64,000 nucleotides of DNA from Zootoca vivipara (taxonomy: Eukaryota). The notes under the pieces are model-generated. The model did no database searches and was not told the origin of the DNA. It was given only the letters and a program-made list of their open reading frames with translations. Both the position numbers and the translations under genes were made by a program. How positions within the stretch are numbered: position 1 is the stretch's first letter; each line of letters starts with the position of its first letter. This document shows positions 5,132 to 54,274 of this stretch, one piece after another. The stretch spans positions 82,584,001 through 82,648,000 of the forward strand of contig NC_083276.1 in the NCBI RefSeq assembly GCF_963506605.1. The letters are read 5' to 3'.

Positions 5132-6067
5132 TCATGAAAATCTTTTCAAACCAAATGCTTTGACCAAGGCCCTCTTAACATCCTTATTCCTCAGACTGTA
5201 GATCATAGGGTTTAGCATAGGAGTAACAATCCCATACAACATGGAAACAATTCTGTCCTGTTTGGGTGAATAGCTGGAGGTGGGGCGAACATAGGTGGCA
5301 ATGGTGGTCCCATAAAACAGGAAAACAACGGTCAGGTGGGAACCGCAGGTAGAAAAAGCTTTGCGCCTTCCCTCAGCAGAGCGCATGCGCAGAATAGCAG
5401 AAATGATACACACATAAGAGATCAGCGTGACCAGGAAAGCACCACCTCCTAAAATGCCAGCCACAAGCAGGAGAACCAGTTCTGGGAGAAAAGTAGAGGA
5501 GCAAGAGGCAGCCATTAGTGGTGGGATATCACAGTAATATTGGTGAATTTTATTGGGCTCACAGAACGATAATGTAAAGGTCATTGAGGTATGAATCATG
5601 GAATTGATGAAGCCGGTTAGCCAGGTCCCAGCAGCCAGCTGAACACACCGCCTTTTCGTCATGATGTTTGTGTAGTGCAAGGGACTGCAGATTGCCACGT
5701 AGCGGTCATACGCCATCACTGAGAGCAAGAAGATTTCGGTGCCCACAGCATCAATCAGAAAGAAGAGCTGTAATACACAACCAACAAATGATATTGTCTT
5801 GTCCTCCGACATAAAGATCTGGAGCATCTTGGGCACTGTAACTGTGGGGCAAAGGACATCCAGGAAAGATAGGCTGCTGATGAAGAAGTACATGGGGGTC
5901 TGGAGGTGACTATCTGTTACTATTGCAATCAGAATTGCCCCATTTCCTGCCAGAGTGATCAAGTAGGTCAGCAGAATCACCACAAAGAGGGTGATTCGCA
6001 CTTCTGGGAGATCAGAGAGTTCAGTCAAGTAAAAGTCTTTTGCTGTTGTGGTGTTGTCTTTCTGCAT
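5132..6067 (-). CDS. olfactory receptor, class II (OR5V1-like), 311 aa
   Basis: Intronless ORF with N-terminal sequon NTT and OR motifs [40 protein letters not shown]. Confidence 0.95.
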   Translation of the reverse strand: MQKDNTTTAKDFYLTELSDLPEVRITLFVVILLTYLITLAGNGAILIAIVTDSHLQTPMYFFISSLSFLDVLCPTVTVPKMLQIFMSEDKTISFVGCVLQLFFLIDAVGTEIFLLSVMAYDRYVAICSPLHYTNIMTKRRCVQLAAGTWLTGFINSMIHTSMTFTLSFCEPNKIHQYYCDIPPLMAASCSSTFLPELVLLLVAGILGGGAFLVTLISYVCIISAILRMRSAEGRRKAFSTCGSHLTVVFLFYGTTIATYVRPTSSYSPKQDRIVSMLYGIVTPMLNPMIYSLRNKDVKRALVKAFGLKRFS

Positions 6068-6790: not shown

Positions 6791-8615
6791 GCCCATCATA
6801 TGATGCATGCCAACATCAGGGCTGTGTACCCTCCCCGACCCCTGCTACATTCTAGGGGCCTGTCAAGGGAATGAGAGGGCTCTGGATGCAATGGTTGCAA
6901 AACCTCCCTTACCATTCCCAGCACAACCCTGGAACACTGGAGGCAGGGCAAAAAGGAGCAACAACAGGTCTCCCTCATTAGATCTCCCTCTCCTATGGCA
7001 GACCTCCGTCTCCACCCATGGAGAGGAAGATCTGCAGAATCTGATGGCCTCGGGTCAGGCACCCCAAGGACCACAGGATTGCAGTCATAATCAAAATGCC
7101 CTACCCCTCAAAATTTTACTGCATATACTGCAATGCACACACTTAAATAATCCTGTTCAAAATATTAAGGGGTACCAGAATGATGGGTGGTAGTTAAACA
7201 GTAACGCCTAGGAAACATTATAGATTGTGTAGCATTTTGTTTTTAGTTGCTTGACTTCAATATTTATGATCTCTATTAAAAATCCAAGTAGGACCTTCAA
7301 CAAAATGTTGCAGTGTGGAGTGCTGCAGCCACGGAATATTCAGCCACTTCATTCCATTCTCCTTGCCTACAACAGCGAGTCAGCATTCTGTAGTCACTGA
7401 GCATGCTAAGTTCCCATTGGACTGCTCCCCCCCCCTTTCCCTGCTCTTAGACATGGTGCACTTCAGCAAACATTGGAGTTTCCTGTGGCTGGTGGTATCT
7501 CCCTGTTGTGTGTGAAAAGTACTACTACACACATGGATAGTACAATATCCACACACAACATAAAGACAGGCACCTCAGAGAATGAGTTTGCTATTAGTAT
7601 ATATTACTCAGAGGAGTAGAAAATCCTCAAAAATTATCATTATTGGATTTAAATTGTATTTCAACCACTATCCATAGTAGTAAAATGGAATCAGCAATGA
7701 TGAGGGGTTTTCCTGACAGATATTATTATTCAAATCAATTGCTGCAAATGTTAAATTTTCCAAACCATGAGGTGCAAGTTCTTTATGCTTCATAATCACA
7801 GATATTCAAAAGAAATTATCAAGTGATGTAAAGGAACTGATCAAAATTCTAGTCCATGTTTCATTGCAAGATACATGTTAAAAGAAGGAGATTAAAAACT
7901 TATCAAACCAAGAAAATGTGCTTACCATATAACAACATTACTCTCCAAGTTTATATTATCACTTAATAACAGGCATTTGTATGGCAAGACATTTATCTGC
8001 CAAAGCTGCAAAACAGTTTAATAAGAGTAAATGGATTTTAAACTCACCTAATTACAATATATTGCAAAGAGGCTATGATTTCCCCCCAAAACAATCACTA
8101 AACCTAAGGTATACATTTCCACATAGAAACTCAACTAAGATTATGACTTCCGATCTCTTATATTTAGTTCACTGAATGAATATAATATGCCCATAACTGA
8201 AAAACAGCACTATAGACCTAAAGTGTTTTGACTGCCTAAGATTGGAGACCCAGTAAACTGCATCCACTAGCCTTCCTTGCTTTCCTTGTGAACCGTAGAA
8301 CCACAGCAACAAACAAGACAGTGGGGGATTTATGTGGAGTGAAGGAAAATGTTGTCACACAGCAATCTGAAGTAATACCTAAGAAGCTCTGCCTCTGTCA
8401 TGAGTCAGAAGGACAACATCTCCCCCCCCCTTGCCACAGAGGTGGGGGGGGGAGAGAGATGGCATAAACTCTGTATTGGGACACGGGTCTCGGAGGAATC
8501 CTGCAGTTGCTGACCTGAAATCTCAGTTGTGCGAAAACTCATTGGGCCAGATCCTGTTTGCCAACACACAGGAAAGAAAAACATTACTTTGGGTAAACAG
8601 ATTATATTGATTAAA

Positions 8616-8955
8616 GGTAAAGGTAAAGGGACCCCTGACCATTAGGTCCAGTCGCGGACAACTCTGGGGTTGCGGCACTCATCTCTCTTTACTGGCTAAG
8701 GGAGCCGGTGTACAGCTTCTGGGTCATGTGGCCAGCATGACTAAGCCGCTTCTGGCAGACCAGAGCAGCGCACGGAAACGCCGTTTACCTTCTCGCCAGA
8801 GCGGTACCTAGTTATCTACTTGCATTTTGACGTGCTTTCGAACTCCTAGGCTGGCAGGAGTTGGGGAGCTCACCCCGTTGCGGGGATTCGATCTGCCGAC
8901 CTTCTGACTGGTAATCCCTAGGCTCTGTGGTTTAACCCACAGCGCCACCCACGTC
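8616..8955 (-). mobile_element. Sauria SINE
   Basis: (ACCTTT)n tail seen as AAAGGTAAAGG on +; typical internal GGTCATGTGGCCAGCATGAC; 15-bp TSD ATTATATTGATTAAA (8601-8615, 8956-8970). Confidence 0.9.
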
Positions 8956-12730: not shown

Positions 12731-12894
12731 CAGTGGTACCTCAGGTTACAGACGCTTCAGGTTACAGACGCTTCAGGTTACAGACTCCGCTAACCCAGAA
12801 ATAGTAACTCGGGTTAAGAACTTTGCTTCAGGGTGAGAACAGAAATCGTGCAGCGGCGGCAGCGGGAGGCCCCATTAGTTAAAGTGGTACCTCA
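12731..12894 (+). mobile_element. 5' half of a Tc1/mariner-type MITE (copy A), broken at the duplication junction
   Basis: TA|CAGTGGTACCTCAGGTTAC start; ends abruptly at AAAGTGGTACCTCA where the duplicated OR segment begins. Confidence 0.85.
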
Positions 12895-13092
12895 TTGATT
12901 AGGTTCCATGTTGTTATTTTTCTCAGATGTTTTATTCGTAGATGGAGACATTGATACCATGATCCACTGATATGAAGACACGTTCCATTGCAGAAATACC
13001 AAAAGGTTCTTAGTGTGGCCGTTTTCCCTAGTCATTCCTATTTCCCCTCCACTTTTCTGAGGAATAGAGACTGCACATCATCAAATAACAAA

Positions 13093-14031
13093 ATGGCAGG
13101 AGAAAATCATACTGTGGTGGCAGAATTTTTCCTCTCAGGCCTCACAGAAAATCCTAAGGTGGCCCTTATTTGTTTTCTCTTCTTTCTAGCAATGTACCTG
13201 GTCACTTGTGTGGGGAATCTCGGGATGATTGCCTTGATTAGAATCGATTCCCGACTCCATACCCCTATGTACTATTTCCTCAGCAACTTAGCTTTTGTGG
13301 ATTTCTGCTATTCCTCAACTATAACTCCCAAGACACTGGTGAATTTCTTAGCTGTCAGGAAAGCCATTTCATTTGGTGGCTGCATTGCACAATTGTTCAG
13401 CTTTGTCCTGACTGCAAGCGTTGAGTGCCTTCTGCTGGCTGTCATGGCCTATGACCGATATGTGGCCATTTGTAACCCACTCCTCTATACAGTCATAATG
13501 ACAAAGAAGGTCTGCGCTCAGCTGGTAGGCATTACCTATCTTATCGCCTTGATCCATGCTCTTGCCCAAACTATCTCCACATTCAGGCTCTCCTTCTGTG
13601 CCTCCAATGTCATCAATCATTATTTCTGTGACATTCCTCCTCTCATAAAGCTCTCCTGCAGCGATACCTACAGCAATGAGATTGTGCTTTACACCTTTGG
13701 CACTTTCCATGGCATCTTCACCTCAGCAGAGATTGTTGTCTCCTATGTGTACATCATCTCCACGATCTTGCATATTCGCTCTTCAGAAGGCAGACGCAAA
13801 GCCTTCTCTACCTGTGCCTCTCACCTCACAGCTGTCTTGATATTTTATGGAACCACAGTGTTCATGTATGTCCGGCCAATTTCAAGCTACTCTCTGGGCC
13901 GAGACAAAGTGATCTCTGTGTTCTACACAGTGGTGATCCCCATGCTGAATCCCCTGATCTACAGCCTGAGGAATAAGGAGGTGAAGGATGCGCTGATGAG
14001 ATTCTCAGGAAGGCTGAAGTTTTCTCAATAA
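13093..14031 (+). CDS. olfactory receptor, family 5-like, 312 aa (derived duplicate copy)
   Basis: ATG at 13093 ([14 protein letters not shown], sequon NHT); [41 protein letters not shown]. Confidence 0.93.
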
Positions 14032-15281
14032 GCAAATGTAGTACATGGACAGAAACCCTGGTTAGAATAGATTGTTTCGTGCATCACTGGTACTCCTAAC
14101 TGTGCAAAATTGAAATAAAACAAAAAATGTGCTTGTTTTTAACGTTGGTATACTGTCCAATAACTCTGGGTGGCAAATATTACAGTTTATAAGCCTTGAA
14201 AAAATGTAACATGTGAATCAAGGGGGAAAAGCAACGAATCCATATTTATTTTTAAAAAATAGAAGAGATAAAATAACCAGCTGAAAACTATATAAAACAG
14301 CATTTAAAAGCACTAAAAGATTGTAAGAATTCAAAATACCTGGGAAAATAACAAGGTATCAGCTGGTGCTGAAAGAGCAGGTGAGCCTCTCTGGAGAGGG
14401 GTACATTGCCCAAAAGACCCTCTATTCAGTAACCATGTACTGCAGCTCATTTAGTGGGGACCAACCAGAAAAGGGTCTCTGAAGATGACTTTAGGTCCAG
14501 ATAGGCATATATGGATGGTGGTAATAATCATGTAAGCCAGCCCCAAACCATTTAGGGCTTTAAAGGTTAAAATCAGTAGACCTATTGAAATGAATGGGCA
14601 TGACTAAGTTAGGATAATTGCAGTGGGGCGGCTATGAGTAAAAAAATAGTTGAATGTCACTCATTCAGATTTTATCAAATGTTGCATTGTGTAAGAAAAC
14701 ACTACTAATGGTGACCCACTTCATTGTGGGCCCTTGTGCAAAATATAGTTTGGGCACCCAGTTTAGTTGGATTATACAGAGCAAAGGAAGCAGCGACCTA
14801 GGCAAATAGTTCATTTATGAAGCAGAAAACCCATTAAAAAATAAAAATAAAACTCACAAAACAGCTGTCAAGAAGACCAGGTCTCTAAAACCTAGGATTC
14901 AGCCCCTTGGCAGTTTAGCAGGTGCCAATTGGACAGAGATGAAAAAAGGCAACTCTTGCAAAGTGGTACACTTCCACCACTCCTGTAGTTCAACCAGCCT
15001 AAGCCAAGAGACCCCCAGACTTTACCAAACAACCTCAAGACTCCCAAAAAGCAAGAGCTAAGAACCATGCTCTCTGCCTTGAGGGCCTTGAGTCCACAAG
15101 GTTACCCAGTAGCAGTTTAACCAACAGGCCAATTAACTGGATCCACCACCATGGCTTTCCCCAAGAAACCACACCAAGGATTGAAGATGTAGATTTATTG
15201 TAATAATTAAAACTGACAGCAAAAAAGACAGAACCTGCGTGCCAGTGAGAAATATATTGCTTAAAAAAAAACTGTTTAGAG

Positions 15282-15511
15282 ACAAGGTTCCCAACGTGGG
15301 GCACACACCCCACAGGGGGGCAATTTGTTTTTTAGGGTGGGGGCAATTTGGAAGCTTGTTTAGACCAAATTAATGACCTTTTAGGCTTCCTCCATGTGAA
15401 TAGGAGTTCACTTTTTGAATAATAAGAATTATATGTCACGGGGGGAGGGCGGGCATCAGAATTTTACAGATGCTTAGGTGGGGCATGGCCAAAAAAGGTT
15501 GGGAACTACTG
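15282..15511. mobile_element. hAT MITE (also present in the right arm, ~22097-22326)
   Basis: GTTCCCAAC / GTTGGGAAC termini; TSD GTTTAGAG. Confidence 0.7.
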
Positions 15512-15668
15512 GTTTAGAGCATAAAGTACAATTGGGAATTATAATACAGTACAGAAATAAAACAATAAAGCTAACTTAATCTAGCTCTAATACATACCAA
15601 CAGAGCCCTCCCTCAGGAAGAAAACACAAAGGTGTCAGTTAAGGTATGAGGCACAAGACAAAGAAATA

Positions 15669-15782
15669 CAGTGGTACCTTGGGTTACAAACGCTTCAGGT
15701 TACAGACTCTGCTAACGCAGAAATAGTACCCCGGGTTAAGAACTTTGCTTCAGGATGAGAACAGAAATCGTGCTCTGGCGGC

Positions 15783-15813
<31 letters not shown>

Positions 15814-15909
15814 CCCCCATTAGCTAAAGTGGTACCTCAGGTTAAGAACAGTTTCAGGTTAAGAATGGACCTCCAGAACGAATTAAGTTCTTAACCCGAG
15901 GTACCACTG
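15669..15909 (+). mobile_element. Tc1/mariner-type MITE, apparently chimeric (5' part from copy B, 3' part from copy A)
   Basis: TA-flanked CAGTGGTACCT...AGGTACCACTG. The 5' part is near-identical to the right-arm MITE; the last ~80 bp differ from it at about 8 positions. Confidence 0.85.
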
Positions 15910-16336
15910 TATCCCACATGATACCAGGGGGCAACATCAGCTTGTTGGAGGGAAGTTTACATACATATATGGTGGTTTTGCAAATCTGTTCACCCATTTG
16001 GGGCTTTGGTATTCAAAGAATTGAGTTTAATAGAAAAAGCAGGCCTGCAAACTTCCCCTCAACTTACTTTACTTGCAATAAAGAACATGTCTGCTCCACC
16101 AATTTTTCATAAAGTCCTTTTAACATTCCTCCTCGTGGTGGCATGTATGGAAATAGCCATGTGATGGCGCACTACCTTGGGCTTGAACATTGAAGCAGAG
16201 TACTGCAGAGCATGGACAATAGCCCTGGCTGAGAAGACATAACACATTCATGTGACCAAAGGGAATTCTAACTCCCATCAGTTCTATTAAGTGTGGCAAC
16301 CATTTTTGGATGACATGCATCAAGAAGATTGTGCTT

Positions 16337-17220
16337 AATAATAATAACAATAACAATAACAATAACAATAATAATAATTTATTTATACATTGCCCATCTG
16401 GCTGGGTTTCCCCAGCCACTCTGGGCGGCTTCCAACAGAAAAATAAAATAATTGATTAAACATTAAAAGCCTCCCTAAACAGGGCTGCCTTCAGATGTCT
16501 TCTAAAAATCTGGTAGCTGTTTTTCTCTTTGACATCTGATGGGAGGGCATTCCACAGGACGGGCGCCACCACCGAGAAGGCCCTCTGCCTGGTTCCCTGC
16601 AACCTGGCTACTCGCAATGAGGGAACCACCAGAAGGCCCTCGGTACTGGACCTCAGTGTCCGGGCAGAACGATGGGGGTGGAGATGCTCCTTCAGGTATA
16701 CTGGACCGAGGCTATTTAGGGCTTTAAAGGTCAGCACCAACACTTTGAATTGTGCTCGGAAACAGACTGGGAGCCAATGTAGATCTTCCAAGACCGGTGT
16801 TATGTGGTCTCGGCGGCCGCTCCCAGTCTCCAGCCTAGCTGCCGCATTCTGGATTAGTTGTAGTTTCCAGGTCACCTTCAAAGGTAACCCCACGTAGAGC
16901 GCATTGCAGTAGTCCAAGCGAGAGATAACTAGAGCATGCACCACCCTGGCGAGACAGTCTGCAGGCAGGTAGGGTCTCGGCCTGTGTACCAGATGGAGCT
17001 GGTAGACAGCCACCCTGGACACAGAATTAACCTGTGCCTCCATGGACAGCTGTGAGTCCAAAATGACTCACAGGCTGCGCACCTGGTCCTTCAGGGGCAC
17101 AGTTATCCCATTCAGGACCAGGGAGTCTTCCACACCTGCCCGCTTCCTGTCCCCCACAAACAGAATTTCTGTCTTGTCAGGATTCAACCTCAATCTGTTA
17201 GCCGCCATCCATCCTCCAAG
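16337..17220 (-). mobile_element. L2 LINE, 5'-truncated (RT C-terminal region plus 3' tail)
   Basis: ORF 16456-17061 has SRLDYCNALYVGLP...QNAAARL...HITPVL..LHWLP, typical of the L2 clade; microsatellite tail. Confidence 0.9.
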
Positions 17221-17689
17221 AGAACTCAGGCAATATGTGGGGAAAAAATAATTGGAGTGAACTATAAGAATTTGGTTCAATATTTTTAAGAAAAGTAATT
17301 GATGTGTTGGGAGTTGTGTTGTTTTATGTGTAATGTGAAAAATGAAAAAAAATTAAATAATAATAATAATTTAATGCATACGGTAGAGGAGCCATCCTGG
17401 CGAGAATATGAACTAGCCCATTTTATCTGGTATGATTAGCTTACAGGGACGGAACCATGCTGTGGGAAAATAGGGGGGCAGATCTGGGCAAGATAAGGAG
17501 GAGGAATCGTGGGTCATTTTTGTCATGATGCACAGGCATGCCAAGGTGTCATGTCCAAACCAGCATTCGCTCCAGAGAACCTGCATCTGCCTTTCTCTAA
17601 TTTGAAGCAACGTCTTTGAAACGGAGTTGAATTTTAACAAGGCACTGAGGAGCCAATTTGCCAGAACTTTCAGACTTCTTGCATAAGTT

Positions 17690-17980
17690 ACATAATGGCA
17701 GGCTGGCAAGCAATAACTTTTTAATCATGCCCGCGAGGGCTTATTAGTATAGCTGGGAGTTGACACAGTTGCCGGAGATATGAGTCAATTACCTTAAACT
17801 GATCACCTCAAATCCAGAGGCAGAAGAGCTCAAAGGGGAAAACCCCTGGAGTCTTCATTTTTGTTTTCTTGCCAGAATTGGGACCATTAGGCTGAAGCAG
17901 TGCACACAATCTCTATGGTGCATGTCTTTGTTCCCAAGAAAGGAGCAAGAATTGGCTACAGAAAATTCCCTAGGAGAGAT
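17690..17980. promoter_or_regulatory. candidate OR enhancer: homeodomain and O/E (Lhx2/Ebf-type) motif cluster
   Basis: AACTTTTTAATCA (17715-17727); O/E-like CCCGCGAG (17730-17737) with TAAT sites on both sides; second composite CCCTGGAG-TC-TTCATTT (17844-17860); TCCCTAGGAG (17967-17976). Non-repetitive DNA away from any OR 5' end. Confidence 0.5.
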
Positions 17981-18224
17981 TGGTAAGGGGAAGAAAAACT
18001 ACTTGTATGATCTCCAACTCTGAGACTACACAGAACATTAATCATGCACTTCTATTTTCTATTCTATTACACATGACAGAGTGAATCACCTCCGAGTATG
18101 AGTACCATTCTTGTTAGCCACACGTCCCCATCTTCCCAGTCTGGGCCTGCCATTTGTCCTATCCCCTGCTGACCCCACAGGGGAAAAACACAGAACATAG
18201 AGTTTAAACTGAGAGTTGCCTATA

Positions 18225-18543
18225 AGGGGGCCCCTGACCATCAGGTCCAGTCGTGTCTGACTCTGGGGTTGCGGCACTCATCTCGCTCTATAGGCCGAGG
18301 GAGCCGGTGTTTGTCCGCAGACAGCTTCCGGGTCATGTGGCCAGCATGACAAAGCTGCTTCTGGCAAACCAGAGCAGCGCACGGAAACGCCGTTTACCTT
18401 CCCGCCGGAGCGGTCCCTATTTATCTACTTGCACTTTGATGTGCTTTCGAACTGCTAGGTAGGCAGGAGCTGGGACCGAGCAATGGGAGCTCACCCCATT
18501 GCAGGGATTCGAACAGCCGACCTTCTGATCAGCAAGCCCTAGA
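18225..18543 (-). mobile_element. Sauria SINE
   Basis: Close similarity to 8616-8955. Confidence 0.85.
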
Positions 18544-19038
18544 CACCTGGGTCCCTGAGAGTTGCTTATAGAAAGCAGCTATATGAAAATCCAAGCATGG
18601 TGTATTTGCTAGAACACAGCAGAAGTTATGGGAAAGGGGCATTAATTCATGCTACTCAAAGCTGAAGCTTCAGCCATTCATGCATTCCCATTGCCAGGGT
18701 GGCCCATCCAGTTTCACTGCCTGAAAAAAGATCTCATGACAGCTCTATGAGCTCCCACGAGCAGGGGCGGAGGAAGTGGGGTGCAATGGGTGCAGATCGC
18801 CCTGGGTGTCACCACTGGGGGGGGTGACAAAATGCCAGGCGGCACTCACCGCGGGGCTTGCAGCGCGCCCGAGCCTCGCGTCTCTCCTGGGAGAGATGTG
18901 GCAGCCTGGGGGGGGTGCAGGCTCTGCACTGCCCAAACAGTCCACCCACTGCCTCTCCCCCCCCCCCAGCTGTAGGGCGGCTGAGTGGGAGGAGGCAGGC
19001 AGACTACGGAGGCCTCGCGGTGCGCCCCACCCCTATGG

Positions 19039-19161
19039 TAAGGTTACCAGGGTTTTTTCAATGAATCCCGGGACACTTTTCAACTTCAATGGATTTTGTA
19101 TGGGGACAGATTGGTAAATCCGGGGACTGTCCCCAGGAAACGGGGGCGTCTGGTAACCTTA
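19039..19161. mobile_element. hAT MITE nested in a GC-rich hAT-like element (~18763-19300)
   Basis: TAAGGTTACCAG / CTGGTAACCTTA TIRs; TSD CCCTATGG. Confidence 0.8.
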
Positions 19162-20029
19162 CCCTATGGGCGGCTTGCCCTGCCCCTATGGACTGCTTGT
19201 CGTGTCTCTGGGTGTGCCGCCCCAGGCGCCTGAGTGCTGCCCATGAGATCTTGACGGAAGCTGCACCCACCACAGCCGCAACAGCCGCACAACCCCAGCA
19301 GTGACAGGGGTAGGTCTATGGAGGCACAGCTTCATGGGATTCCAGATCCCCCAAGTGTCCCTATTTTCCAGAGACAATCCCAGATATACAGAATCCATCC
19401 TGGTTTCTGATTTGAATGCCCTACTTCTCTTTAAAGGTAAAGAGAAATTACCTGAAATATTTCTCTTCAACACGGAAGTGTATTTTATACCCGGTTATTT
19501 ATTGATCTGGCTTCTCACGTGAGAATCATCAACCCCTGTCTGTAAGGCCCCTCTCCCTAGTATCACGTCCATAACTTGAGGTTGCACCACTTTCTCACTT
19601 TTTCCAAGGCCTCTGGTTGTTAGGTCAGGACCATTCTACTCTCCATCACCACTTTCTCACCTTTTCCAAGGCCTCTGGTTAATGGGTTAGTTACCCTCTT
19701 ACCCTTGCTCATAGCATAACTGGTTTTCCTGGCGGCTGGTATTTTTTATTTCTCTTTCCCTTCAGACCACATCTCAAGTGCTCCTACTGATCCGATTTCT
19801 AGCCTGGAGTAACAGTGCAATGGACTTCGCGCAAGCTACCTATATGGTATTATAGCACAGCGCTGCACCAGTTTAGCACAGCGCGTTTAGCACAGTTTAG
19901 CACAGCGCTGCACCAGTTTAGCACAGCGCGCGGGAGACTCACTTAGCAGGGAGCTCGGTTCACGAGGGCCGGATAAACGGGGCCCATGGGCCGTATCCGG
20001 CCCATGGGCCAGAGGTTGCCAACCTCTGT

Positions 20030-20263
20030 TCTGGAGGTTCCCTCACTGCGAGAAACGAAGTTACAGGGAACCAGGCAGAGGGCCTTCCCGCCCTGTGGAA
20101 CACCCTCCCTTCAGATGTCAAGGAAATAAACAACTATCTGACTTTTAGAAGACAACTGAAGGCAGCCCTGTTTAGGGAAGCGTTTAATATTTGATGAATT
20201 ATTGTATTTTAATATTTTGCTGGAAGCCGCCCAGGGTGGCTGGGGAAACCCATCCAGATGGGC

Positions 20264-20314
<51 letters not shown>
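20030..20314 (+). mobile_element. L2 3' end with (TTA)n tail
   Basis: Matches the 3' end of the L2 at 16.3-16.6 kb (GAAGGCAGCCCTGTTTAGGGA, GGAAGCCGCCCAG). Confidence 0.8.
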
Positions 20315-20315
<1 letters not shown>

Positions 20316-21183
20316 TCCCTTTTAGCACAATTGGAGGTGTCTTCATGTTTTACAGGCCCATGCTTTAAGCCAAGGTTGGCGGTAGTAGTGGACTGTGGCC
20401 TTCTTGATGTTGTTGGGACTCCCAACTCCCACCAACCTCAGCCAGCATGGCCAATGGTCAGGGATTGGTGGGAGCTTGTAGCTCAGTAACATTTGGTGGG
20501 CCATAAGTACCCCACCCCTGGCTTAGATCATCCGCCTTTGGAGTTGCCTGGCTCAAGTTCCTAAGGCTCTATGTTGTTTCTCAAGTCTCCATCATTATAC
20601 AGGGTGCTTTACACTGCAACATAAGCAACAGAGACATGTCCCTGTCCCAAATTTTGTAAGAAGGGAGCGGAGTGCCTGGCGGAAAGAGGGCCAAAAAAAA
20701 TAGGAGACAAATACGTGTAAATGCAGCTGCACTTATTTAGGCTTAGCTCAAGTAAAGAGTGAAACCGAAAGGGCATCACAGAACAAAAAGGCTTTGAAAA
20801 AGAAGCTTGGAGGAAACAACTATTGTATATCACTAGCTTAGAGTTCAGAAACAATAGCTTGAATCTCCTATATTGTGAATAACATTGCACGGACGGCCTA
20901 TAGATGGATCTTTGGTGACATCTAGTGGCTGGTTTAAAAAAATGTATTCATTCAGTCTTCTCAAACCAAAGGAATGGGAAGTTTTTTTCAATTCTAGGCC
21001 CGTTTAGATTTTAAAGGATCAAATACCAGGTGAAGAAACTATGTGGAGGTTATACTCAGCAGTATTCTGCTTCTCTGTCCATTACTAATAAAGGATGCAA
21101 TACCCCACATTATTGTTGAGGAGTGCTGACAATCGACATGCTGCTGGCTTGCCACTCAACCATACCCTAGTCATGAGTTAGGC

Positions 21184-21321
21184 CAGTGTTTCTCAACCAG
21201 TGTGCCTCCAGATGTTTTGGGACTACAACTCCCATCATCCCTAGCTAGCAAGACCAGTGGTCAGGAATGATGGGAGTTGTAGTCCCAAAACATCTGGAGG
21301 CACACTGGTTGAGAAACACTG
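21184..21321. mobile_element. palindromic hAT MITE
   Basis: TSD AGTTAGGC; near-identical to 3189-3326. Confidence 0.9.
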
Positions 21322-21560
21322 AGTTAGGCTTCCCTCTTGCCTTCAGAAGTTTTGTTAAGTATCTTTCCATAAGAACAACCCCTCAAATTGATAATCCCGT
21401 CACACAAGAGAGGGGAAAGCAATGGGGCAAAAGCAAAGCTGCTTAGACCAATGAACTAGCAGCAAATCACTTAGTCCCATGCTTTCTAGGCATGTGACAG
21501 GCAGAAGTATGGACAAACCCTTCTTGCATTGCTAGGCTATGTAATATAAAGTTACCCATA

Positions 21561-21795
21561 CAGTGGTACCTCTGGTTAAGAACTTAATTCGTTACGGATG
21601 TCCGTTCTTAACCTGAAACTGTTCTTTACCTGAGACACCACTTTAGCTAATGGGGGCTCCTGCTGCTGCTGCTGCTGCTGCGCCGCCAGAGCACGATTTC
21701 TGTTCTCATCCTGAAGCAAAGTTCTTAACCCGGGGTACTATTTCTGCGTTAGCAGAGTCTGTAACCTGAAGCGTTTGTAACCCAAGGTACCACTC
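21561..21795 (-). mobile_element. Tc1/mariner-type MITE (copy B)
   Basis: TA-flanked CAGTGGTACCT TIRs; lies at the inner end of the right duplication arm. Confidence 0.85.
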
Positions 21796-21879
21796 TATTT
21801 CTTTGTCTTGTGCCTCATACCTTAACTGACACCTTTGTGTTTTCTTCCTGAGGGAGGGCTCTGTTGGTATGTATTAGAG

Positions 21880-22015
21880 CAGGCATCCCCAAACTGCGGC
21901 CCTCCAGATGTTTTGGCCTACAACTCCCATGATCCCTAGCTAACAGAACCAGTGGTTGGGGAAGATGGGAATTGTAGTCCAAAACATCTGGAGGGCCGAA
22001 GTTTGGGGATGACTG
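21880..22015. mobile_element. hAT MITE present only in the right arm
   Basis: TSD TATTAGAG (21872-21879, 22016-22023); the left arm has the empty site CTCTAATA at ~15585. Confidence 0.9.
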
Positions 22016-23577
22016 TATTAGAGCTAGATTAAGTTAGCTTTATTGTTTTATTTCTGTACTGTATTATAATTCCCAATTGTACTTTATGCTCTAAACCAGT
22101 AGTTCCCAACCTTTTTTGGCCATGCCCCACCTAAGCATCTGTAAAATTCTGATGCCCGCCCTCCCCCCGTGACATATAATTCTTATTATTCAAAAAGTGA
22201 ACTCCTATTCACATGGAGGAAGCCTAAAAGGTCATTAATTTGGTCTAAACAAGCTTCCAAATTGCCCCCACCCTAAAAAACAAATTGCCCCCCTGTGGGG
22301 TGTGTGCCCCACGTTGGGAACCTTGTCTCTAAACAGTTTTTTTTTAAGCAATATATTTCTCACTGGCACGCAGGTTCTGTCTTTTTTGCTGTCAGTTTTA
22401 ATTATTACAATAAATCTACATCTTCAATCCTTGGTGTGGTTTCTTGGGGAAAGCCATGGTGGTGGATCCAGTTAATTGGCCTGTTGGTTAAACTGCTACT
22501 GGGTAACCTTGTGGACTCAAGGCCCTCAAGGCAGAGAGCATGGTTCTTAGCTCTTGCTTTTTGGGAGTCTTGAGGTTGTTTGGTAAAGTCTGGGGGTCTC
22601 TTGGCTTAGGCTGGTTGAACTACAGGAGTGGTGGAAGTGTACCACTTTGCAAGAGTTGCCTTTTTTCATCTCTGTCCAATTGGCACCTGCTAAACTGCCA
22701 AGGGGCTGAATCCTAGGTTTTAGAGACCTGGTCTTCTTGACAGCTGTTTTGTGAGTTTTATTTTTATTTTTTAATGGGTTTTCTGCTTCATAAATGAACT
22801 ATTTGCCTAGGTCGCTGCTTCCTTTGCTCTGTATAATCCAACTAAACTGGGTGCCCAAACTATATTTTGCACAAGGGCCCACAATGAAGTGGGTCACCAT
22901 TAGTAGTGTTTTCTTACACAATGCAACATTTGATAAAATCTGAATGAGTGACATTCAACTATTTTTTTACTCATAGCCGCCCCACTGCAATTATCCTAAC
23001 TTAGTCATGCCCATTCATTTCAATAGGTCTACTGATTTTAACCTTTAAAGCCCTAAATGGTTTGGGGCCGGCTTACATGATTATTACCACCATCCATATA
23101 TGCCTATCTGGACCTAAAGTCATCTTCAGAGACCCTTTTCTGGTTGGTCCCCACTAAATGAGCTGCAGTACATGGTTACTGAATAGAGGGTCTTTTGGGC
23201 AATGTACCCCTCTCCAGAGAGGCTCACCTGCTCTTTCAGCACCAGCTGATACCTTGTTATTTTCCCAGGTATTTTGAATTCTTACAATCTTTTAGTGCTT
23301 TTAAATGCTGTTTTATATAGTTTTCAGCTGGTTATTTTATCTCTTCTATTTTTAAAAAATAAATATGGATTCGTTGCTTTTCCCCCTTGATTCACATGTT
23401 ACATTTTTTTCAAGGCTTATAAACTGTAATATTTGCCACCCAGAGTTATTGGACAGTATACCAACATTAAAAACAAACACATTTTTTGTTTTATTTCAAT
23501 TTTGCACAGTTAGGAGTACCAGTGATGCACGAAACAATCTATTCTAACCAGGGTTTCTGTCCATGTACTACATTTGC

Positions 23578-24516
23578 TTATTGAGAAAACTTCAGCCTTC
23601 CTGAGAATCTCATCAGCGCATCCTTCACCTCCTTATTCCTCAGGCTGTAGATCAGGGGATTCAGCAGGGGGATCACCACTGTGTAGAACACAGAGATCAC
23701 TTTGTCTCGGCCCAGAGAGTAGCTTGAAATTGGCCGGACATACATGAACACTGTGGTTCCATAAAATATCAAGACAGCTGTGAGGTGAGAGGCACAGGTA
23801 GAGAAGGCTTTGCGTCTGCCTTCTGAAGAGCGAATATGCAAGATCGTGGAGATGATGTACACATAGGAGACAACAATCTCTGCTGAGGTGAAGATGCCAT
23901 GGAAAGTGCCAAAGGTGTAAAGCACAATCTCATTACTGTAGGTATCGCTGCAGGAGAGCTTTATGAGAGGAGGAATGTCACAGAAATAATGATTGATGAC
24001 ATTGGAGGCACAGAAGGAGAGCCTGAATGTGGAGATAGTTTGTGCAAGAGCATGGATCAAGGCGATAAGATAGGTAATGCCTACCAGCTGAGCGCAGACC
24101 TTCTTTGTCATTATGACTGTATAGAGGAGTGGGTTACAAATGGCCACGTATCGGTCATAGGCCATGACAGCCAGCAGAAGGCACTCAACGCTTGCGGTCA
24201 GGACAAAGCTGAACAATTGTGCAATGCAGCCACCAAATGAAATGGCTTTCCTGACAGCTAAGAAATTCACCAGTGTCTTGGGAGTTATAGTTGAGGAATA
24301 GCAGAAATCCACAAAAGCTAAGTTGCTGAGGAAATAGTACATAGGGGTATGGAGTCGGGAATCGATTCTAATCAAGGCAATCATCCCGAGATTCCCCACA
24401 CAAGTGACCAGGTACATTGCTAGAAAGAAGAGAAAACAAATAAGGGCCACCTTACGATTTTCTGTGAGGCCTGAGAGGAAAAATTCTGCCACCACAGTAT
24501 GATTTTCTCCTGCCAT
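23578..24516 (-). CDS. olfactory receptor, family 5-like, 312 aa (presumed original copy)
   Basis: ATG at 24516; differs from 13093-14031 only at ENPK/ENRK and PMLNP/PLLNP. Confidence 0.93.
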
Positions 24517-53177: not shown

Positions 53178-54274
53178 CAGGGGCGTAGCCAGGATGAAAA
53201 TCAGGGGGGGCAAGGGGCGGGGAGCAAGGGGCGGGGCCAAGGGCGGGGCCAAGGGGCGGGGGCGGGGCCACATCGGAGCAGCCCGAAATCGGGCTGCTCC
53301 GACTCCCTCCTCCCCCTCCGCGATAGGAAGGGACGAGGGGGAGCCAGGATCAGCCCGAAATCGGGCTGCTCCGACTCCCTCCTCCCCCTCCACGATCGGA
53401 AGGGACGAGGGGGAGCCAGGATCAGCCCGAAATCGGGCTGCTCCGACTCCCTCCTCCCCCTCCGCGATAGGAAGGGACGAGGGGGAGCCAGGATCAGCCC
53501 GAAATCGGGCTGCTCCGACTCCCTCCTCCCCCTCCACGATCGGAAGGGACGAGGGGGAGCCAGGATCAGCCCGAAATCGGGCTGCTCCGACTCCCTCCTC
53601 CCCCTCCGTGATAGGAAGGGACGAGGGGGAGCCAGGATCAGCCCGAAATCGGGCTGCTCCGACTCCCTCCTCCCCCTCCGCGATAGGAAGGGACGAGGGG
53701 GAGCCAGGATCAGCCCGAAATCGGGCTGCTCCGACTCCCTCCTCCCCCTCCACGATCGGAAGGGACGAGGGGGAGCCAGGATCAGCCCGAAATCGGGCTG
53801 CTCCGACTCCCTCCTCCCCCTCCGCGATAGGAAGGGACGAGGGGGAGCCAGGATCAGCCCGAAATCGGGCTGCTCCGACTCCCTCCTCCCCCTCCACGAT
53901 CGGAAGGGACGAGGGGGAGCCAGGATCAGCCCGAAATCGGGCTGCTCCGATCCCCTCCTCCCCCTCTGCAATCGCTGGGGCAGGTGGAGGGAAAGCCCCA
54001 GAGCCGCGCAAAGCGGTTGCCTGGCTTTCCCTCCGCCCGCCCCACAGCCAGCCGGCTAGAAGGGACGTCTCCCTTCTCCCTTGCTGGCTGTGGGGCGGAG
54101 GGAGGGAAAGCCAGCCAAACGCTTCGCGCGGCTCTGGTGCTTTCCCGCCGCCCGCCCCACAGCCAGCCAGGGAGAAGGGAGACGGCACCGGGCGGGCAGT
54201 GGGGCAGGCTGGCCAGTGGCCCTGCTTCTAGGGGGGGCAATTGCCCCCTCCTGCCCCCCCTGCCTACGCCCATG
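53178..54274. mobile_element. GC-rich hAT element nested in the HAL1-like element
   Basis: CAGGGGCGTAGCCAGG / CCTGCCTACGCCCATG; TSD TCCCCAAT (53170-53177, 54275-54282). Confidence 0.9.
53279..53970 (+). repeat. 72-bp minisatellite, about 9.6 copies
   Basis: GCCCGAAATC recurs at 53281, 53353 and so on; 24-aa periodic chance ORFs. Confidence 0.95.

Follow-up and report, generated by a model that had tools for sequence, protein, structure and literature searches.

A candidate Greek-island-like Lhx2/Ebf enhancer in a class II olfactory receptor cluster of the lizard Zootoca vivipara

Introduction

Enhancers of olfactory receptor (OR) genes have been studied almost solely in the mouse, according to the available part of PMC6744719. 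The mouse H and P elements and the P3 promoter each carry an extended homeodomain motif of 13 bases, the 13-mer, with a neighbouring O/E site, as far as the accessible text of the source papers describes them (PMC5638857, PMC7804114, PMC6744719). A larger set, the Greek Islands, comprises 63 + 27 OR enhancers of about 400 bp that are co-bound by Lhx2 and Ebf (available text of PMC5608512 and PMC11166570), and the accessible part of the later account defines them by ATAC and by Lhx2/Ebf co-binding in ChIP, not by sequence (PMC11166570). Further characters of the class are H3K27ac within H3K9me3 domains, a composite motif of fixed spacing with a HOMER score above 5 or 10, a position away from OR transcription start sites, reporter activity in olfactory neurons or reduced choice of nearby ORs on loss, and participation in interchromosomal hubs. 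Composite motifs are enriched in mouse enhancers over promoters in the sections available from two reports (PMC5608512, PMC12547500). The J element, which belongs to class I ORs, and the TAAR enhancers are likewise built from homeodomain, O/E and composite motifs (accessible portions of PMC5638857, PMC7804114 and PMC8213717); J has been reported in mammals and not in zebrafish or Xenopus, and the TAAR enhancers only in placentals, in the available part of PMC8213717. In listings of the openly accessible literature, we found no OR enhancer described for a reptile or a bird. The factors themselves are old, since mouse enhancers work in zebrafish noses; zebrafish OR enhancers are said to have been treated by Nishizumi in 2007.

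The site considered here lies in a window of 64,000 nucleotides from Zootoca vivipara (C1:82,584,001-82,648,000), the whole stretch of DNA that was analysed, to which all positions without a contig name refer. It was originally picked by eye from many windows, and an earlier note had proposed positions 17690-17980 as an intergenic enhancer of OR choice.

The Olfactory Receptor Cluster and the Single-Copy Island

For cluster mapping and for motif and repeat counts, 664 kb around the window were read. They hold a class II OR cluster, some 70 ORs and fragments in size, which ends at 82,666,400, that is 65 kb past the site and beyond eight further OR genes or pseudogenes, and which on the other side extends at least to 82.17 Mb. 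The site is intergenic and non-coding inside this cluster, a location that it has in common with the Greek Islands. The OR proteins of the window fall into 90% clusters with Podarcis, Lacerta and Zootoca proteins, which marks them as those of a lacertid lizard, and the neighbouring ORs are 5I1-like and 4S2-like. One 5I1-like OR (39450-40400) is unusually well kept for an OR, its 90% identity cluster including amphisbaenian, anguid and cordylid proteins. Elsewhere in the window are an open frame of 954 amino acids (44549-47413), which we take to be a LINE reverse transcriptase, and a G+C-rich 72-bp tandem repeat (53194-54231) that is open over 345 amino acids. Past the cluster end, where the domain scan covered 150 of 547 frames, stand a GPCR-like frame and exons with Ras, CXXC plus F-box, kinase plus PH and ANKRD13 domains, which presumably belong to RHOD, KDM2A, GRK2 and ANKRD13D. 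On mouse chr2, the interval from 37 to 111 Mb has one listed island, Paros (90.4 Mb); the search for PTPRJ synteny toward it found no tyrosine-phosphatase exon adjoining the lizard cluster among the 150 of 212 candidates scored.

The site occupies a single-copy island of 1 kb (17220-18218) between two repeats. The interspersed repeat on the left (16337-17220, minus strand), at which the contig of organism B, one of the relatives compared below, continues with 309 unaligned letters, is in our estimation a LINE remnant. The short interspersed repeat on the right (18223-18542) has up to 36 matches in the 664 kb; there the contigs of organisms B and D continue with 320 unaligned letters, and we assume it to be a Sauria-type SINE. 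That the site itself is a repeat, a decayed OR or a structured RNA was ruled out, as it is single copy, holds no OR remnant and has no Rfam match.

On both sides, the island and its repeats are enclosed by an inverted duplication. The left copy (12892-15912, plus strand) contains an intact OR at 13093-14031 (plus), and the right copy (21558-24685, minus strand) contains an intact OR at 23578-24516 (minus) with unique upstream DNA. The copies are 98.4% and 95.4% identical, the 98.4% stretch spanning 2.7 kb, and the two ORs differ at six of their 939 coding bases. The duplication is recent and has copies of a small repeat at its bounds. Since the upstream DNA that the left OR shares with its duplicate measures only about 200 bp, with a repeat directly abutting, the left copy is likely the newer one. 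One copy of the duplicated OR is likely without a promoter, and the 5.6-kb spacer with the element could be invertible between the two copies.

Motif Anatomy and Comparison with Described Elements

Direct reading and a scan located every motif of the earlier note at the position it had given. We used the 13-mer, 21-mer, TAATKR (homeodomain) and YYYCARRRR (O/E) definitions found in the accessible text of PMC7804114, bioRxiv 2021.09.28.462154 and PMC5638857, and the 17-position Fuzznuc composite pattern in the available part of PMC11643329. The proposed extent of the element is a low-substitution core at 17624-18055, inside the single-copy island. Its central feature is the extended homeodomain stretch ATAACTTTTTAATCA on the plus strand (17713-17727), a predicted Lhx2/Emx2 site that matches the published H/P 13-mer at 12 of 13 positions, the mismatch being C for G in the TAATGA core, and that has no listed difference in organisms B and C. 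This stretch runs into an O/E-like 10-mer at canonical spacing, which the earlier note had missed: Composite A (17722-17738, plus) consists of TAAT, three bases and the 10-mer (TAAT plus Y4-NN-R4, one mismatch), and agrees with the Fuzznuc pattern at 14 of 17 positions, or at 15 of 17 with the letters of organism B. The O/E-like core CCCGCGAG runs from 17730, and Composite B (17730-17746, minus) agrees at 16 of 17 positions and, with organism B letters, at all 17. Two homeodomain sites thus flank a single O/E core head to head, A on the plus and B on the minus strand, and in organisms B and C the core common to both forms a palindrome of 12 bp.

Composite C (17843-17860, minus), which the earlier note had placed at 17844-17860, has AAAT in place of TAAT and a YYYCARRRR O/E site; it agrees with the Fuzznuc pattern at 17 of 17 positions (organism B, 16 of 17) and contains a 14-mer that recurs next to two further extended-homeodomain sites in the genome. 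Single TAATKR sites stand at 17693-17698 (plus; no listed difference in B or C), at 17786-17791 (minus; overlapping a minus-strand donor-like GT that fits the consensus at 8 of 9 positions) and at 17884-17889 (minus), and a further YYYCARRRR O/E-like site at 17932-17940 (plus). The stretch 17967-17988 (plus), inside a 126-bp run without a listed substitution, begins with TCCCTAGGAG (17967-17976) and continues with a donor-like GGTAAG (17982-17987). TCCCTAGGAG matches neither of the two scanned O/E patterns; we take it to be a weak O/E-like word, by eye 8/10 to the Ebf consensus. Altogether three TAATKR sites, two YYYCARRRR sites and the extended site fall within 400 bp, a several-site content of the H/P type, although the plain count is reached by 3% of background windows.

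With H, P and P3 the site shares the extended homeodomain followed directly by an O/E-like stretch, the presence of more homeodomain and O/E sites within 300-400 bp, and the location in a class II cluster; it agrees with the H 21-mer at 15 of 21 positions, 13 bases of them contiguous. It differs from H and P, in which the 13-mer is exact, by its 12/13 match with C for G in the core, by the two homeodomains set head to head on one O/E core, by a flank that resembles neither the H-specific nor the P-specific one (full matrix rank 548), and in being known from its sequence alone. Like the Greek Islands, it is intergenic in an OR cluster, about 400 bp long and canonical in composite spacing. The closest layout is that of Sfaktiria, in which the composite also grows out of an extended homeodomain, and the Sfaktiria EMSA probe has the same spacing as the composites of the site, as far as the available part of PMC5608512 supplement 7 goes. 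The likeness to J and to the TAAR enhancers lies in the homeodomain, O/E and composite grammar, J also having an extended-homeodomain-like site, but these serve class I ORs or TAARs, whereas the site stands among class II ORs and is not a J element. The class I-like cluster of this genome is on contig C4, and in the 80 kb at one end of it no J-like motif was seen outside a repeat-like context.

Motif Frequency Against Background

How much of this could arise from chance motif matches in A/T-rich intergenic DNA, coupled with a fluctuation of the neutral rate, is to be judged from motif frequency, substitution rate and recurrence in turn. Each motif alone is at background. A 12/13 match to the extended homeodomain turned up in 22 of 100 shuffled versions of the window, and the 664 kb contain 11 such sites; the Fuzznuc composite pattern occurs 3.1 times per kb in the cluster; and at least three homeodomain plus at least two O/E sites within 400 bp were found in 3.3% of 12,530 cluster windows vs 3.0% of 7,867 windows outside. 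The composite pattern and the plain site counts, being at background level, were rejected as evidence. Their combination is rarer: within the 251 kb of cluster DNA that is neither repeat nor coding, the 12/13 match is joined by at least three homeodomain and at least two O/E sites at this locus only, but outside the cluster one locus in 157 kb passes too, which is as a chance origin would have it.

Published matrices gave a similarly divided picture, PSWMs 1 and 4 being scored from the accessible part of PMC6744719. With columns 1-23 of PSWM 1, those shared by H and P, the site ranks first of 1,327,956 positions, at 16.9 vs 14.3 bits for the next best. This lends the element modest support, because the 23-column cut was our own choice and the next site trails by only 2.6 bits. 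The PSWM 4 core gives rank 102. Full PSWM 1 (rank 548) and full PSWM 4 (rank 855) are unremarkable, as expected of chance matches, and were discarded as support. The second-best full H/P matrix match in the cluster is at C1:82355733, immediately beyond the OR at 82354335-82355267; it is a second candidate enhancer or promoter, and to the eye it is similar to the double-homeodomain stretch in mouse P.

Substitution Rate in Close Relatives

Twenty indexed runs from 7 studies hold part of the stretch, and five other organisms share 20-21% of its words; the alignments were drawn from 4 of 24 listed runs. The relatives are about 5% diverged, and organism C shares most of its differences with B, so that the two amount to nearly one comparison. 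Organisms D and F hold 20% of the words; the core itself was compared in B and C. Six of six matches pursued as vertebrate host DNA in metagenomes ended at 19-21 bases, as chance matches do, and were set aside.

The contig of organism B spans 17250-18224 with 47 differences, 37 of which are listed, the other 10 being inferred to lie near the contig ends. Over the 432 bp of 17624-18055, organism B differs by 10 substitutions, with no indel listed, so this core of ~430 bp stands at 2.3-2.5% substitutions vs 6-8% beside it, the flank rate coming from 350-680 bp of the island itself; all five listed indel rows fall in the left flank. Counted over 400 bp centred on the motifs, there are 10/400 substitutions vs 26/346 in the listed flank (Fisher p 0.001), and 7/400 vs 20/346 without CpG transitions; an even spread of the 10 remaining differences would, by a hand calculation, bring p to about 0.07. 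Two substitutions lie inside composites, and no TAAT core has a listed change.

For the coordinates that the earlier note had fixed beforehand, 17690-17980, the counts are 10/291 vs 26/455 with p 0.11, which suits a fluctuation of the neutral rate. A motif-blind scan speaks against such a fluctuation, in that its best low-substitution window, 17624-18053 (permutation p 0.041; for the 400-bp minimum p 0.015, both corrected for the scan), is centred on the motif cluster. In close relatives, the conservation comparison that the earlier note had suggested tends in its favour over the wider core, about 17624-18055, and not over the narrower interval.

The Same Grammar Elsewhere in the Genome

The genome was searched with a pattern tailored to this site and to Sfaktiria, an extended homeodomain plus Y3-N3-R4, which gave 86 rows and 79 distinct sites. 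Among the 78 other sites, 25 were read directly (including all 21 on C13-C19) and 53 were compared by eye with a partial OR map; on this basis 73 of the 78 have no OR nearby, as a chance origin would predict. The remaining five (C16:20378922, C16:20390618, C13:42028200, C13:29604329 and C13:29680810) lie at most 10 kb from an OR, vs none of 81 distinct sites, seven of them read directly, in 100 of the 110 rows of the reversed control. The five include two paralogous pairs and hence represent three independent events, for which the Poisson p of at least three is 0.01-0.06 if OR neighbourhoods cover an estimated 8-16 Mb. Exact 13-mers stand beside ORs at C16:20378922 and C13:42028200.

The two C16 sites, cleaner candidates than the site in the window, belong to an isolated cluster of two ORs with no other OR in 140 kb. 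The two ORs have paralogous blocks, each of which combines an extended homeodomain of 13/13 or 12/13 with a composite and with more homeodomain and O/E sites. At C13:42028200 the exact H-type 13-mer adjoins an O/E-like stretch, and C13:29604329 and C13:29680810 are a duplicated 11/13 site with a canonical YYYCARRRR in a plus-strand OR array.

The 14-mer of Composite C has 30 genome copies vs 10 for its reverse, and lies within 150 bp of 2/78 other pattern sites where 0.0005 would be expected, a coincidence noticed after the fact. Its copies near extended-homeodomain composites, at window positions 17843-17856, at C16:20390740 and at C15:28429779, are arranged differently from one another. The C16 site is OR-linked, and the C15 site (C15:28429724) has no OR within about 65 kb. 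The bare 15-mer occurs at 32 genome sites vs 11 for the reversed word; none of the four sites read, from the 31 others, has an OR within 5 kb, and three of these four share repeat-like flanks, so the bare 15-mer was dropped as an OR-cluster marker. Taken with the motif-blind window, the OR-linked recurrence of the pattern and the 14-mer beside 2/78 sites, even as a post hoc choice, would be hard to obtain randomly, and we consider it unlikely that the site is a product of chance.

Enhancer or Promoter

Both flanking ORs (13093-14031, plus; 23578-24516, minus) point their 3' ends at the site, as the earlier note had observed. Its conclusion that the site is not a promoter, since both neighbours point away, is nevertheless too strong. 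Three look-alike sites are found upstream of ORs, and the left OR is a duplicate of recent origin; until that duplication arose, the OR at 5132-6067 (minus) would have been the neighbour on the left, with its 5' end facing the site from about 8.5 kb away. The site might supply the promoter and the non-coding first exon to an OR whose 5' intron is long, the candidate genes being the OR at 5132-6067 (minus) and that at 32325 (plus), or it might be an orphan promoter whose OR has been lost. It would then be bound by the same factors but serve a single gene.

The likely recent insertion of the left neighbour fits such a promoter. So do the look-alikes C16:20378922, C16:20390618 and C13:42028200, each of which precedes a same-strand OR, by 9.5, 9.2 and 5.5 kb respectively, as is to be expected where a promoter is followed by a long 5' intron. 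The mouse P3 promoter, too, has the same 13-mer (available text of PMC7804114 and PMC6744719). Donor-like GT words stand on both strands of the core, but at 0.4 per kb per strand such words are uninformative. Against a promoter, an opposite-strand OR now lies between the site and either candidate gene, no TATAWAW occurs within -300/+600, no OR remnant was seen in 15913-21557, and composites are depleted in mouse OR promoters. Moreover, upstream of the OR-5132 genes stands a conserved block particular to that family (8134-8549), present in six copies and unlike the site. No adjacent OR faces away from the site, which has no paralogous promoter likeness, and we judge a promoter improbable here.

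The block at 8134-8549 is about 68% identical among the six copies of the OR-5132 family and is likely the promoter or first exon of that family. Its copy in the window is cut on the 5' side by a SINE (8624-8921).

That the site is instead a constrained enhancer for the non-OR genes past the cluster end, or for another tissue that uses homeodomain and Ebf factors, would accord with the nearness of that end (65 kb), with the GPCR-like frame and the domain-bearing exons beyond it and with C15:28429724, where an extended homeodomain and the 14-mer occur away from ORs, but is very unlikely given that the extended 13-mer was defined on OR elements and that eight OR genes or pseudogenes intervene.

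Conclusions

On balance, the site is best read as a Greek-island-like Lhx2/Ebf enhancer of the H/P type, probably active in olfactory neurons. Lhx2 (or Emx2) would occupy the extended homeodomain and the opposite TAAT, and an Ebf dimer would sit on the O/E core between the homeodomains and on the second O/E site 110 bp away. Lhx2 would recruit Ldb1, which may keep the island open within the silenced chromatin of the cluster, and an open island would raise the probability that a nearby OR is chosen. The factors bound, the enhancer action, the target genes, the tissue and any formation of a hub are all predicted from mouse work. As to the intergenic enhancer of OR choice that had been proposed, an OR regulatory element is indeed the best reading, whereas some probability stays with a promoter, and membership of the Greek Islands is a matter of chromatin and binding. 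The site is not classed among the Greek Islands here, since these are defined by ATAC and co-binding; the exact 13-mer is also absent.

We found no description of a head-to-head double composite on one O/E core, nor of a 14-bp extended O/E word. More tentatively, and with some doubt, the OR clusters of lizards might be run by an H/P-like Lhx2/Ebf family comprising this site, C16:20.38-20.39 Mb, C13:42.03 Mb and C13:29.60/29.68 Mb, within which the double composite and the 14-bp word of this member would point to a further binding partner or to a squamate version of the composite.

With the candidate of 430 bp and its five look-alikes, the question whether OR choice driven by enhancers is older than mammals becomes directly testable. 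If the enhancer reading is true, it would extend a known mechanism and not reveal a new one; if such a family exists, reptiles and mammals would share the enhancer grammar of one-receptor-per-neuron choice.
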